This document shows, in pieces, positions 20,568 through 63,999 of a DNA stretch of 64,000 nt (the stretch's first letter is position 1; the number at the start of each line of letters is the position of its first letter). A model generated the notes under the pieces. It saw nothing but the letters and a program-made list of their open reading frames with translations. It searched no databases and was not told the origin of the DNA. Made by a program: the position numbers and the translations under genes. Origin of the DNA: a virus (Duplodnaviria > Heunggongvirae > Uroviricota > Caudoviricetes); IMG/VR virus record IMGVR_UViG_3300045988_157791; one strand, 5' to 3'.

Positions 20568-21161
20568 TTACTGTTTGTTGTAAACAAAACCAATATCTTT
20601 CTTGTGAGGCATATCTGCTGCGGAAAAAGCTGCGATCTTCGCGAGTCGATCACATATTTCATTTTCACGATGCCCGGCGTGACCTTTAACCCACTTCCAG
20701 CGAACATTATGTCGACTTGCAGCCTCATCCAGACGCTTCCACAGATCAACATTCTTTACCGGTTTTTTGTCAGAAGTCACCCATCCATTGCGTTTCCACC
20801 ATTTCATCCACTGTGTCATGCCGTTTTTCAGATACTGGCTATCAGAGTGCAAAATAACGTTGCATGGATATTTCAAACGCTCCAGCCCGATAAGTGCCCC
20901 CATCATCTCCATGCGGTTATTGGTGGTGCTATGAAAACCATCTGAGAACTCGCGTTCCTCACCACGATACTGGAGAACTATACCGTAACCGCCCGGGCCA
21001 CCCGGATTTTTAAGGCAAGAGCCATCACTGAAGATTTTCACGGTTTTAAGCTGGGGATTGAACTCTACGACAGGCGTTGTGGAATTGGTGCGGGGAGAAT
21101 TTTTGTTTTTGGCTTTTTTGCGAGTTTTTTCTTGCGATCGGGCTGGTGTCTTCGTCGTCAT
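20568..21161 (-). CDS. ribonuclease H (RnhA-like) with basic N-terminal extension
   Basis: Aligns with E. coli RNase HI as I recall it ([37 protein letters not shown]); ATG with AGGAG SD. Confidence 0.8.
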
Positions 21162-21164
21162 ATA

Positions 21165-21745
21165 AACTCCTGAATCAAGCGCCGCGCCGATTTTTTTCCT
21201 CGCGCGTGCGCACACGCGTGCGTGTTAATAATTATTAAAATAAACAAATTACTTCCCAGAACAGGTTTTTATAAACCTGAACTGAACGAACGAAGTGAGT
21301 GAAGTTCACCTCGAACGAAGTGAGAGGTTGTCTTTTCAGGTAATACTCTCCCAGGGAGGTGAGTATAAAAATCCCTCACCAACCTGGTCGTTTCATAACC
21401 TGAAAAGTTATGGCCTAAGTCTACTGCCAGCTTAGACTTGGGAAGTTATGGATGACAGCACCCCAGAACCGAGATCTTCCCACACTTTATGAAGGGGAGT
21501 ACTGGATTCAACCTCTCGAAACACCCCAGACTCGACAATCATAAAGTGACCCTTGTCTCCGCTCACTTTGGTTCCCCCTTCCCCGACACCTAAACGGCAC
21601 CGGTTCTACGCTGGTAGTGAGCTTTTTTAAACCTGACGCCAGTGACGCTTACCCCCACCCATCAGGTCGAGTCTCCAGTCTACGACTGGAAACTATCAGA
21701 TCTTAGCACTTACAATTCACTTTATGAATAGTTTGTACTTATCTA
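21165..21745. other. 0.58-kb ORF-free region dense in hairpins and short direct repeats (candidate structured RNA or cis-acting site)
   Basis: No ORF of 60 aa or more; palindromes CACGCGTG, CAGGTTTtataAAACCTG, GTGAAGTTCAC, CTCCCAGGGAG, GGTGAG..CTCACC, CCAGTCtacGACTGG; GAACGAAGTGAG x2. Confidence 0.4.
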
Positions 21746-21976
21746 TCATTTCGATTGATTATTTTCTCGACCATGTAGTTGAACATTCAAGGCAAACACC
21801 TCGTTAATCAACTCACCTAAAAGCTGTTCAACAAGTTCGCGATGCTCCCCAAGATGCAAGCACTTAATTGCCCATTCGTACAAGTTGAAAGCCTGCTCGC
21901 GATCTTTCATCATTTCACGGGCCTGGGCCAGAAAATCGCTCTCTACGAGCGCAACGACATTAGTCGGGTATGACAT
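21746..21976 (-). CDS. hypothetical protein (76 aa)
   Basis: ATG with AAGGAAA SD. Confidence 0.4.
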   Translation of the reverse strand: MSYPTNVVALVESDFLAQAREMMKDREQAFNLYEWAIKCLHLGEHRELVEQLLGELINEVFALNVQLHGRENNQSK

Positions 21977-22161
21977 GTTAGTTTCCTTAAAGTGATTCAT
22001 AAAATCGATTTTAAAGCGTCTGGGAAGGGGTTCTAGTGGATTCTGTAGTGATGTTCAGGTCTGGAGTCTCTGATACAAAACAGCCTGCTTCCGTATATTA
22101 ATAATTAATATGTAGTTATTTATATATACAGAAGCAGGCTAATTACAGACGCCAGAACAAA

Positions 22162-22755
22162 CTAAGCAGCCTTCTTTGATGGTCTTTTTTTCCTGATCAC
22201 ATTCGCAGGATCATACCCTCCCAGACTTTTCATGACGTCCAAAGGGATCTTGCTTATAGAGTGCCCAGCGTCCTGACAGAATCCTCGAAAAACAACGAGC
22301 ATACTGCCACCTGGGTTGATGTTTACTTCTACCTGACCCAGATTGACGTCAGGCTCGACAAACGCTACGCGGCCACCAGACAGAATAATCGTCTCATTCG
22401 CACACTCTGTTGCACGCTCATACCACTTTGTATCTAGGGATTGAGGAATTAGCATCACTGTTGTAACTCCGCGAGCCTGCTCACGTATAGCCGCATCAAT
22501 CCAGGGGGAGATTTTGGAGTAGGGTGGATTGAGGAAGGCAATTGTACCTGGCTGTCCCCATTCAGATTTCAAAGCATCACGCTCAACGCCTATGAAATTA
22601 GGCAGCTTTGCATTGTCCTTGTTGCAGGCAACGTCAACATCAAATGTCACTCCAAGATAACGTTGAATGGCAGAAAACAGCCAGTCAGGTGTTCTCCAGA
22701 GGTCACGAAGAGAGTTGTCGCGCTTTCGCTGTTTGATTTTTTCGGCTGCAATCAT
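22162..22755 (-). CDS. phage-type DNA N6-adenine methyltransferase (Dam-like, 197 aa)
   Basis: NPPY catalytic motif (IAFLNPPYSK) in a small phage Dam-family architecture. Confidence 0.7.
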   Translation of the reverse strand: MIAAEKIKQRKRDNSLRDLWRTPDWLFSAIQRYLGVTFDVDVACNKDNAKLPNFIGVERDALKSEWGQPGTIAFLNPPYSKISPWIDAAIREQARGVTTVMLIPQSLDTKWYERATECANETIILSGGRVAFVEPDVNLGQVEVNINPGGSMLVVFRGFCQDAGHSISKIPLDVMKSLGGYDPANVIRKKRPSKKAA

Positions 22756-47843: not shown

Positions 47844-48172
47844 TGATGCCCGCCAATTGGCGGGCATCTGTTCTCTGTAAAGGTGTCTGGCATCGTCTGG
47901 TTCGTTAACGTTTACTAAACCAATGGTGACAAAAATTAGTTATCTTTGAAAAATAAAGGTTGCATGAAAAGAAGGGGTATGCGTTAATAGCATCGTTGGT
48001 TTGCAAGACAGACCTTATGTAAGCAGTTTTAGTAAAGCAGTCTCAGTTCAGTGTTATCTTCTGATTTCCCTTCTTCGTGAGTCTCCTCCTTAAGTGCCTA
48101 AGTAAGTCCCAATCTATACAGATCAAATTCTCGCCGCACTATGTGGCTCACAAAATTAAGAAGGTAATATCT

Positions 48173-48388
48173 ATGTCTAATAAAATGACTGGTTTAGTAA
48201 AATGGTTTAACTCTGATAAAGGCTTTGGCTTTATTTCTCCTGCTGATGGCAGTAAAGATGTTTTTGTACATTTTTCGGCAATTCAGAGTAATAATTTCCG
48301 CACTTTGGAAGAAGGCCAGCAGGTCGAATTCTCTATCGAGAATGGGGCTAAAGGCCCAGCAGCAGCAAATGTCGTTGCTCTAAGCTGA
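48173..48388 (+). CDS. cold-shock protein (CspA family)
   Basis: [19 protein letters not shown]...[13 protein letters not shown]1/RNP2-like motifs, 71 aa. Confidence 0.85.
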
Positions 48389-48666
48389 TTCAACGCTGAT
48401 GATCCTCATTTCTACAATAACGAAGACGGTGTAAGCCTGAGTGGATAGATTTGCAGGATTGTACAAGTTGAATAAATTAGCATGGTAAGGCCATGCTAAT
48501 TAAATCGACACAACGGCCAGTTTATTCCATAAAAGTGAATTGCCCATTGTGGCGAAATGCGGGGTTGCCGCATGAATAGTCAAAGGCAGAAGCTAACTGC
48601 CGGCATGGCAAAACAAAGTGCGTAAGAGGAGTGACTTCCTCAACAAGCGCCATAATTCTTTATAAA

Positions 48667-63612: not shown

Positions 63613-63699
63613 TGGCGGAGAGTAATGGAATCGAACCATCATCGCTTGCGCAATGGGACGGTTTTCAAGACCGCTTGAGCACCATGCTCCCTACTCTCC
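63613..63699 (-). tRNA. tRNA-Ser (anticodon UGA), class II with long variable arm
   Basis: Folded by hand: 7-bp acceptor GGAGAGT/ACTCTCC, anticodon loop CUUGAAA, variable arm CATTGC-GCAA-GCGATG, T-loop GGTTCGATTCC, 3' GCCA; D-arm atypical. Confidence 0.6.
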
Positions 63700-63923: not shown

Positions 63924-63999
63924 TGGTGCCGGTTAGCGGACTCGAACCGCTGACATCCTGCTTACAAGGCAGGCGCTCTACCAACTGAGCTAAACCGGC
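63924..63999 (-). tRNA. tRNA-Thr (anticodon UGU)
   Basis: Folded by hand: acceptor GCCGGTT/AACCGGC, D-arm GCTCAGTTGGTAGAGC, anticodon loop CUUGUAA, T-arm AGCGGTTCGAGTCCGCT, discriminator A plus CCA. Confidence 0.7.

Follow-up and report, generated by a model that had tools for sequence, protein, structure and literature searches.

The window, a 64,000-nucleotide (nt) stretch of DNA from a virus of the Caudoviricetes (IMG/VR record IMGVR_UViG_3300045988_157791), contains a run of genes that all lie on the minus strand, in the order DnaQ-like exonuclease, 269-amino-acid (aa) protein, Dam-type methylase (22162–22755), 76-aa open reading frame (ORF), a non-coding stretch and RNase HI; DHFR, thymidylate synthase and NrdAB are encoded in the same block. 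The non-coding stretch (21163–21745) is our subject. It had been singled out from its letters as a hairpin-dense region without ORFs of 60 aa or more, between an RNase H gene and a small ORF, and this description is accurate: the longest ORFs in the region are 46 aa (plus strand) and 44 aa (minus strand). Our analyses strongly support the conclusion that it is the gene for a stable, highly structured non-coding RNA (ncRNA) of ~440–450 nt, encoded on the minus strand and co-directional with its neighbors. The RNA and its flanking genes are listed here, with linkage counted among loci with enough flanking sequence.

21245–21695, minus strand: whole ncRNA, ~440–450 nt, delimited by an island of conservation, covariation and RNA sequencing (RNA-seq) of the phage-plasmid Cyrano; the 5′ end is placed by the promoter, and the 3′ end by a U-rich tract and the point at which conservation stops
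21746–21976, minus strand: orf76, encoding a 76-aa protein, adjacent upstream in 184 of 185 loci
20568–21161, minus strand: rnhA, encoding RNase HI (Pfam RNase_H, E = 1.6e-44), the usual but dispensable downstream neighbor

Every palindrome that the original prediction listed is present on the plus strand, each where it had been placed:

21213, plus strand: palindrome CACGCGTG
21262, plus strand: palindrome CAGGTTTTTATAAACCTG
21299, plus strand: palindrome GTGAAGTTCAC
21348, plus strand: palindrome CTCCCAGGGAG
21358 and 21375, plus strand: inverted pair GGTGAG and CTCACC
21675, plus strand: palindrome CCAGTCTACGACTGG

The duplicated GAACGAAGTGAG was likewise found, with copies at 21288 and 21313; the full repeat is the 13-mer CGAACGAAGTGAG, at 21287 and 21312. 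The density of hairpins exceeds chance. The minimum free energy of the minus strand is -212.9 kcal/mol (z = -6.5; none of 100 shuffled sequences folded as well) and the plus strand gives z = -5.7, while z is +0.62 for a control piece of equal length from rnhA and +0.19 for one from the methylase gene.

Sequence matches assign the region and its flanks to SSU5/pHCM2-type phage-plasmids of Enterobacteriaceae, elements of roughly 110 kb that are common in clinical Enterobacteriaceae. Over the region, PhiR41_1, CMS-2020a and Cyrano are 97.6–98.8% identical to the window (Cyrano, the phage-plasmid of Escherichia coli LF82, 97.6%), and Salmonella phage SSU5 is 92% identical. Used as a 583-bp query, the region matches 687 plasmid records and 12 phage records, with carriers in Klebsiella, Escherichia, Enterobacter, Salmonella, Citrobacter and Cronobacter that include pHCM2 of S. 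Typhi CT18 and pKPHS2 of Klebsiella. By BLAST, each genome carries a single copy.

To compare the element among relatives, 79 related loci, labeled here with L-numbers, were obtained through their RNase H proteins and aligned. The core of the element (21262–21662) is 90–95% identical to that of eight other lineages and includes several invariant blocks of 20–40 nt, whereas the flanking coding DNA is 70–81% identical and the RNase H proteins of these lineages are merely 77–84% identical. Conservation falls at both edges of the core, in the 75 nt beside the small ORF and in the AT-rich spacer and (CG/CA)n tract that precede rnhA. These alignments strongly support the view that the element is under stronger purifying selection than any neighboring gene.

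The substitutions that do occur largely preserve base pairing. For an alignment of 20 sequences (A1), RNAalifold predicted a structure of 136 pairs in which 99.2% of cells are paired and 12 pairs have changed on both sides; none of 500 shuffled alignments reached the observed covariation score. More divergent homologs were found by searching with the 76-aa ORF and retrieving the contigs of the most distant ones, which yielded one element that is 82% identical to the window (L323) and others that are 68% identical (L319–L321). Adding the 82% and 68% lineages to those of A1 gave a second alignment (A2), with 98 predicted pairs, 98.9% of cells paired, and compensatory double changes at 30 pairs, compared with 17.0 ± 2.5 in shuffled alignments and 2–4 in controls in which pairing partners were slid. 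As the structures were derived from the same alignments on which they were scored, the double-change counts and the slid controls are the meaningful figures. The alignments strongly support an RNA whose predicted fold has 12 or more helices, one of which is long-range and closes a central domain of five hairpins, and this architecture is common to three deep lineages.

The pattern of substitution also identifies the strand. About 12% of paired cells are G-U, and canonical cells make up 99.2% when the minus strand is read versus 87.7% for the plus strand; many of the one-sided substitutions are switches from G-U to A-U or G-C. This asymmetry indicates that the RNA is read from the minus strand. 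Since one-sided substitutions that preserve G-U pairing are not expected of a duplex DNA site, they also bear on the second of the two options that the original prediction had offered, the first being an ncRNA with structure and the second a DNA site that acts in cis, for example cos/pac or an origin. The former option has gained strong support from covariation, strand asymmetry, a promoter and RNA-seq, and the latter from nothing that we found: GC skew runs straight through the element, the RepA gene is ~18.6 kb away and the terminase genes are far off.

Could the palindromes nonetheless be binding sites for proteins, as in a cos or pac site, a parS site, a cluster of operators or a recombination site? 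The many perfect palindromes and the 13-bp direct repeat, with copies 25 bp apart, are what such a site might contain, the record of one Klebsiella phage (PQ492289) starts ~300 bp from the element, and a recombination junction lies at its 3′ edge. However, helices are maintained by G-U changes, which on the opposite strand would create C-A mismatches, positions 210 nt apart covary, the element is transcribed, and the genes for terminase (tens of kb away), ParB and RepA are all distant. We regard a site that acts at the level of DNA as highly improbable.

Evidence for transcription comes from published RNA-seq of a Cyrano lysogen of E. coli LF82 (Misson et al., PMC9928086; S1 table). The Cyrano genome (OV696614) carries an annotated coding sequence of 44 codons with a GTG start, CYRAN_81, which lies wholly inside the core on the same strand and which we consider spurious. 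In lysogeny, the normalized expression of CYRAN_81, which is internal to the RNA, is 117, compared with 9.5 for CYRAN_80 (the 76-aa ORF), 8.4 for CYRAN_82 (RNase H) and 96 for CYRAN_45, the putative repressor (PMC9928086, S1 table). The authors list CYRAN_81 as a "moron", 12-fold above background, and in macrophages at 6 h its log2 value is 10.3 versus ~5 for both neighbors (PMC9928086). These data strongly support a discrete, abundant transcript in lysogeny, present at about the level of the prophage repressor transcript and at ~12–14 times that of the genes on either side.

Another locus in the same LF82 data far exceeds anything else on the Cyrano phage-plasmid. CYRAN_43 (OV696614 40268–40822), a 555-nt "hypothetical protein" gene between the glutaredoxin and integrase genes, is expressed 723-fold above the prophage background, at ~7000 units. 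This gene may be a second case of an RNA annotated in error, or else a moron with high expression.

That CYRAN_81 is what its annotation says, a gene for a small protein, is hardly credible. Although it is an annotated coding sequence in OV696614 and is expressed, insertions or deletions of 1–2 nt break its frame in lineages L056, L068 and L319, the lineages have no ORF in common, and substitutions track base pairing rather than codon positions.

The original prediction had named covariance-model scans, alignment of relatives and RNA-seq as ways to examine the region, and lack of transcription, lack of covariation and free variation among close relatives as signs against a function. The region is instead transcribed, it covaries (30 of 98 pairs), no other stretch of the locus is as conserved, and it falls in no cataloged RNA family. 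The predicted anatomy of the window copy, from 5′ to 3′ along the RNA, is given below.

21700–21728, minus strand: sigma-70 promoter with position-conserved hexamers, comprising a -35 element TTCATA (21723–21728), a 17-nt spacer and an extended -10 element TGCTAAGAT (21700–21708)
21672–21692, minus strand: P1, a 5′-terminal hairpin directly after the predicted start site, with double changes at 5 of 8 pairs
21631–21667, minus strand: P2, a long hairpin whose 5′ strand, GAUGGGUGGGGG, is G-rich and in which several G-U pairs are conserved
21562–21621, minus strand: P3 domain, a closing helix and an inner hairpin, P3a (21583–21603)
21338–21553, minus strand: central domain closed by the long-range helix P4 (21551–21553 with 21338–21340)
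21483–21548, 21439–21482, 21413–21437, 21394–21412 and 21351–21387, minus strand: the central-domain hairpins P5, P6, P7, P8 and P9, respectively
21309–21327 and 21278–21308, minus strand: P10 and P11, adjacent hairpins that each carry the 11-nt loop UCACUUCGUUC
21240–21279, minus strand: hairpin P12 CAGGUUUAUAAAAACCUG (21262–21279), then invariant UUCUGGG, then a U-rich tract
21163–21239, minus strand: variable AT-rich spacer with a (CG/CA)n hairpin and the ribosome-binding site (GGAG) and ATG of rnhA, outside the conserved core (76% identity)

The promoter is located just past the stop codon of the 76-aa ORF. Its -35 (TTtAcn) and -10 (TAnnAT) elements, spaced by 17 nt, are fixed in position in nine lineages despite the divergence of their surroundings, and the TGn extension of the -10 element is present in most lineages, being imperfect in L056; a simple scan for promoter consensus sequences did not flag this promoter. 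Downstream, the sequence of P1 varies in almost every lineage, with pairing always kept. In A2, P2 has 13 pairs, of which 5 show compensatory change, and is 100% paired; in P3, 3 of 6 pairs show compensatory change, and the stretches ACCAGCG..GAAC and GGGGAAGGGGGAACC of the P3 domain are single stranded and invariant. The three pairs of P4, although separated by 210 nt, covary at two positions, and the hairpins that P4 encloses have 2 (P5), 3 (P6), 6 (P7), 1 (P8) and 2 (P9) covarying pairs. The loops of P10 and P11 are the duplicated sequence noted earlier. The stretch from P10 to P11 is 100% conserved in the main lineage, and in the L319 lineage the stem of P11 covaries at 3 of 6 pairs. Within P12, covariation occurs among close lineages (the pair 462/472 changes from UA to GC in 9 of 20 sequences), and the U-rich tract starts 5–12 nt past CUGGG in every lineage. 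P12 and the U-rich tract are the probable 3′ end of the RNA or an element that stabilizes it.

The (CG/CA)n tract, an alternating purine-pyrimidine sequence of 25–30 nt (~21195–21225) that is followed by a run of seven A residues, is kept in nearly all lineages. It could have the potential to form Z-DNA, or form an RNA hairpin with an A7 loop beside the rnhA ribosome-binding site.

Of the two neighbors, the small ORF is the more constant. Homologs of orf76 are restricted to this group of phage-plasmids, and the sole locus in which it is not adjacent to the RNA comes from a Buttiauxella chromosome, where recombination has left a truncated scar. An AlphaFold2 model of the protein (pLDDT 78.6) has three helices, with no fold match in the PDB at E ≤ 0.001, and neither Pfam nor PHROGs assigns it a function. 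The gene for RNase HI, in contrast, lies intact beside the RNA in 154 of 174 loci; in the remaining 20 (~11%), it has been replaced or truncated. In L151, its place is taken by an 822-aa TIR/TPR protein that resembles a defense protein (L151:6033–8501), and in the L319/L379 lineage by a gene for an uncharacterized 200-aa protein followed by a Tad2-like (anti-Thoeris) gene (L319:3829–4916), where in L379 the downstream genes have their own promoter (TTGACT-17-TAAATT) after the RNA. At other loci rnhA is truncated; L313 and L153 are two further loci that show the variable downstream position. In L151, L297 and L313 the breakpoints fall just past GAGGAAAAAAATCG, immediately after the (CG/CA)n tract. 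Judged from these comparisons, the 3′ edge of the RNA is a junction for the exchange of cargo, the fixed boundary of a cargo hotspot. Since the RNA is kept where rnhA is lost, it is independent of the phage RNase H. The original prediction had also taken the placement of the region in a block of replication genes as a reason to expect a function; the block is as described, but because its RNase H member can be replaced, the argument is weak.

On a chromosomal contig of Buttiauxella gaviniae (L297:4782–5163), a metallophosphoesterase gene of a lambdoid prophage is joined at its end to the 3′ two-thirds of the RNA gene, and chromosomal LysR and MFS genes follow. This arrangement looks like a recombination scar left by exchange between SSU5-type elements and other prophages.

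Several other features of the window were observed. Between the stop codon of the Dam methylase gene and orf76 (22055–22161; also L323:2836–2955) lies a long AT-rich palindrome, AGCCTGCTTC.GTATAT ... ATATAC.GAAGCAGGCT, which on the minus strand is followed by UUUUG and has only weak, microRNA-like matches in Rfam; it is probably an intrinsic terminator that insulates the module of orf76 and the RNA. A full-length cspA thermoregulator 5′ untranslated region (47995–48413, plus strand; 185.7 bits in Rfam) is found upstream of a cold-shock gene (cspG in NZ_CP020118). Genes for tRNA-Ser(UGA) (63613–63699, minus strand) and tRNA-Thr(UGU) (63924–63999, minus strand) are at the end of the window.

If cargo is exchanged just 3′ of the RNA, does the RNA control it? 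One possibility is that the promoter drives the downstream cargo operon (rnhA and accessory genes, among them an anti-repressor in SSU5) and that the folded RNA is a long cis-acting leader or attenuator, which would keep the cargo nearly silent in lysogeny through premature termination or processing and release it on induction, similar in concept to the c4-icd-ant operon of P1 and the anti-immunity operon of N15. The RNA and the downstream genes have the same orientation, our scan found no canonical terminator between them, reads drop 14-fold from the RNA to rnhA, the Ant anti-repressor gene of SSU5 is 1.6 kb downstream, and the C-rich, G-poor loops of P10 and P11 could serve as an entry site for Rho. 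However, the cargo varies (RNase H, TIR protein, 200-aa protein with Tad2-like protein) while the RNA remains 90–95% identical, which is hard to reconcile with a leader for a single gene. Moreover, a good separate promoter lies between the RNA and the next gene in the L319/L379 lineage, a 440-nt fold of 12 helices with invariant loops far exceeds what known attenuators need, and the Rfam C4 family does not match. We therefore consider a leader unlikely.

The nearby RNase HI gene raises a different possibility, that the transcript is a pre-primer or R-loop RNA for a lytic origin, like ColE1 RNA II or the T4 oriF transcript. Here, a G-rich transcript would remain on its template, be cut by the neighboring RNase HI and prime leading strand synthesis by the phage DnaE replicase. 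RNA II is alike in size and in having 5′ stem-loops. The transcribed strand is indeed G-rich (plus-strand GC skew is -0.22 to -0.31 over 21400–21700), RNase HI is encoded directly downstream in most loci, and DnaE, a DnaB-like helicase, ligase and a FEN exonuclease are among the phage's own proteins. Read on the template strand, the P10 and P11 loops give ACGAAGT, a GAA mini-hairpin like those at the single-strand initiation sites of G4 and RSF1010 (PMC13037366). Against such a role, the RNA persists in the ~11% of loci, and in an entire divergent lineage, that have lost RNase H or carry another gene in its place, although the RNase HI of the host could take over. Through the element, cumulative GC skew changes monotonically, with a turning point near plasmid position 17.8 kb, and coding-strand bias is the main determinant of skew; gene orientation is identical on both sides. 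There is no promoter for an antisense RNA resembling RNA I and no match to Rfam RNAI, and the conserved G runs are explained by covarying helices. Finally, the RNA is abundant in lysogeny, when the IncFIB RepA replicon, 18.6 kb away, should maintain the plasmid. We judge a primer to be quite improbable.

The 11-nt loop of P10 and P11 has a wider distribution than the RNA. Its consensus is UCRCUUCGYUC (complement GARCGAAGYGA), with covariation between the R and Y positions, and many IMG/VR phage contigs carry it on stems that are unrelated and that covary, frequently with a run of T residues after it as in intrinsic terminators. The SSU5 family has the motif as the 3′ module of a far larger RNA, in which it is probably a stabilizer, terminator or docking module. 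The complement contains the GAA-triloop mini-hairpin d(GCGAAGC)/d(ACGAAGT), which is extremely stable and is found at the single-strand initiation sites of G4 and RSF1010 (PMC13037366).

The same loop motif is present in inverted-repeat elements, in which two pairs of hairpins flank an AT-rich center of 100–150 bp. These were found in the T4-like Pseudotevenvirus genomes RB43, RB16, Miller and EC-W2 (2–4 copies each) and in marine T4-like contigs. Examples are as follows.

L173:2370–2545, Enterobacter phage EC-W2: inverted-repeat element
L174:2350–2530, Yersinia phage JC221: inverted-repeat element
L093:9026–9251: inverted-repeat element
L146:1886–2115: inverted-repeat element

One of the Pseudotevenvirus copies is just upstream of the uvsY promoter, the position at which T4 has oriF. 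The T4-like elements could be paired single-strand initiation sites, bidirectional terminators or insulators.

How might the RNA of the phage-plasmids act? In the model that we favor, transcription would start ~7 nt past the -10 box, giving an RNA that opens with a protective 5′ hairpin and that would end, or be trimmed and stabilized, at P10–P12 and the U-rich tract that follows. The free RNA would then bind a partner, as a scaffold, a decoy or an RNA-protein particle that serves the dormant phage-plasmid, with the two identical 11-nt loops of P10 and P11 and the invariant single-stranded stretches as candidate contact sites and the always-linked 76-aa protein as the first candidate partner. 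We think it rather probable that the RNA works in this general way, as a free, stable RNA that binds a partner. A bolder proposal, which we hold only tentatively and think doubtful, is that it represents a new class of large functional RNA, either the core of a ribonucleoprotein (RNP) formed with the 76-aa protein or a ribozyme or self-assembling RNA. If so, dormant phage-plasmids would manipulate the host or competing elements by means of the RNA, for instance by decoying a defense system at the edge of the defense/anti-defense cargo hotspot, and the class would be widespread in clinical plasmids of Klebsiella, E. coli and S. Typhi yet never annotated.

A number of points weigh against a free, partner-binding RNA or against parts of the evidence for it. 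Neither a partner protein nor a target RNA emerged from the analysis, and the orf76 model resembles no known RNA-binding fold. Searches of the window and of the other 108 kb (NZ_CP020118) for complementary sites or a second copy found only 11–14-mers at the level expected by chance; one near-complement of the loop motif, in the DnaB-like gene, would be expected by chance ~0.2 times. Both ends of the RNA are predictions from sequence. A terminator scan of the minus strand was empty and the 3′ end is not a canonical intrinsic terminator; the drop in reads before rnhA could thus reflect processing or differential stability of a longer transcript instead of a gene of its own. The RNA-seq libraries are strand-resolving, but the paper does not say whether gene counts were strand aware (PMC9928086). 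Last, the alignments contain only about three deep branches, and many of the covarying cells trace to a handful of evolutionary events.

The RNA is among the best-expressed loci of a dormant element, and at least one genome mis-annotates it as a hypothetical protein that has been counted as a moron gene. It provides a testable handle on phage-plasmid maintenance or on interaction with the host in the plasmid state, and it marks the fixed edge of a hotspot whose exchangeable cargo includes genes for RNase H, a TIR-domain protein and an anti-Thoeris-like protein. Wider searches for homologs (a scan of GTDB genomes, a metagenome scan and a plasmid survey anchored on the exonuclease) recovered only the same three Enterobacteriaceae lineages, and the Acinetobacter phage-plasmids found in the last of these share the exonuclease at 47% identity and lack the RNA, orf76 and the Dam gene. 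Searches of the literature by phage and plasmid names, motif sequence and ncRNA found no description of this RNA, the only trace being its mis-annotation as a hypothetical protein.

Comparison with known RNAs began with Rfam 15, whose 4227 models include GOLLD, ROOL, HEARO, OLE, RNAI, C4, tmRNA, RNase P, 6S, CsrB, group I and II introns and self-cleaving ribozymes. At gathering thresholds, cmscan of the whole window returned only the cspA thermoregulator and a tRNA, both elsewhere. At E ≤ 10, the best matches within the element were to microRNA and hepatitis C virus (HCV) models at chance level, far below thresholds; nothing was found inside the element of the divergent homologs L319 and L323, and a scan for tRNA and tmRNA found none in the region.

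Three kinds of regulatory RNA were considered and rejected. A type III toxin-antitoxin system such as ToxIN would have tandem repeats of ~36 nt ahead of a gene for an endoribonuclease toxin; here, there is only a 13-nt motif that occurs twice, 25 nt apart and in different hairpins, and the downstream gene varies. A type I system like hok/sok would have a short, conserved ORF for a hydrophobic toxin; here, the lineages share no ORF, and the ones that occur are not hydrophobic. For a decoy like CsrB, the ~8 GGA motifs counted by eye in 440 nt are near chance expectation.

The replication control RNAs of ColE1/pMB1 plasmids offer a parallel, as RNA II is also a structured plasmid RNA of ~0.5 kb with its own promoter, RNase H nearby and an adjacent gene for a small helical protein. 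However, in contrast to ColE1 RNA II, RNA I and Rop, our element has no antisense RNA I, its RNase H is dispensable, orf76 has no Rop-like fold match, and neither skew nor gene orientation gives a sign of an origin. A direct search for an RNA I gene gave no match to RNAI (RF00106), and the sole plus-strand promoter site points outward and is not conserved. With the three-helix model of orf76 matching no known fold, the analogy to RNA II, RNase H and Rop has no positive support, and we rejected the idea of a Rop-like partner.

Like the C4 RNA of P1 and P7, the CI RNA of P4 and the CA RNA of N15, the RNA is expressed in the prophage state of a temperate plasmid-prophage, from a constitutive promoter and upstream of genes that must stay silent. 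Those RNAs, however, are ~70–200 nt, are processed from leaders and pair with nearby targets, whereas ours is ~440 nt, with no target repeats found and no match to C4. The occurrence of the P10/P11 motif at a gene-shuffling junction recalls the PeSL cassettes of T4-like phages (PMC2839356), although PeSL stems are GGGG...CCCC and the motif in the SSU5 family is only the 3′ module of a larger RNA.

In overall form, the RNA resembles the large structured ncRNAs of phages and prophages, the class of GOLLD, ROOL, HEARO and OLE. To our knowledge, few bacterial ncRNAs exceed ~400 nt and have so many covarying helices, and those of known role are mostly ribozymes or the cores of RNP machines. As with these four, the RNA is several hundred nt long, is noncoding, resides in a mobile element and combines many covarying helices with invariant unpaired stretches. 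It differs from them in matching no model, in having Enterobacteriaceae phage-plasmids as its hosts and in being expressed in lysogeny; GOLLD expression has been reported in the lytic phase. The layout that we propose for the family, all of which is present in the window copy, is the promoter, the 5′ hairpin, P2, the P3 domain, the P4-closed domain of five hairpins and two hairpins with UCRCUUCGYUC-type loops, positioned, as in the window, directly downstream of an orf76 homolog. We place the RNA as a new family within a known kind, the large structured ncRNAs of mobile elements.

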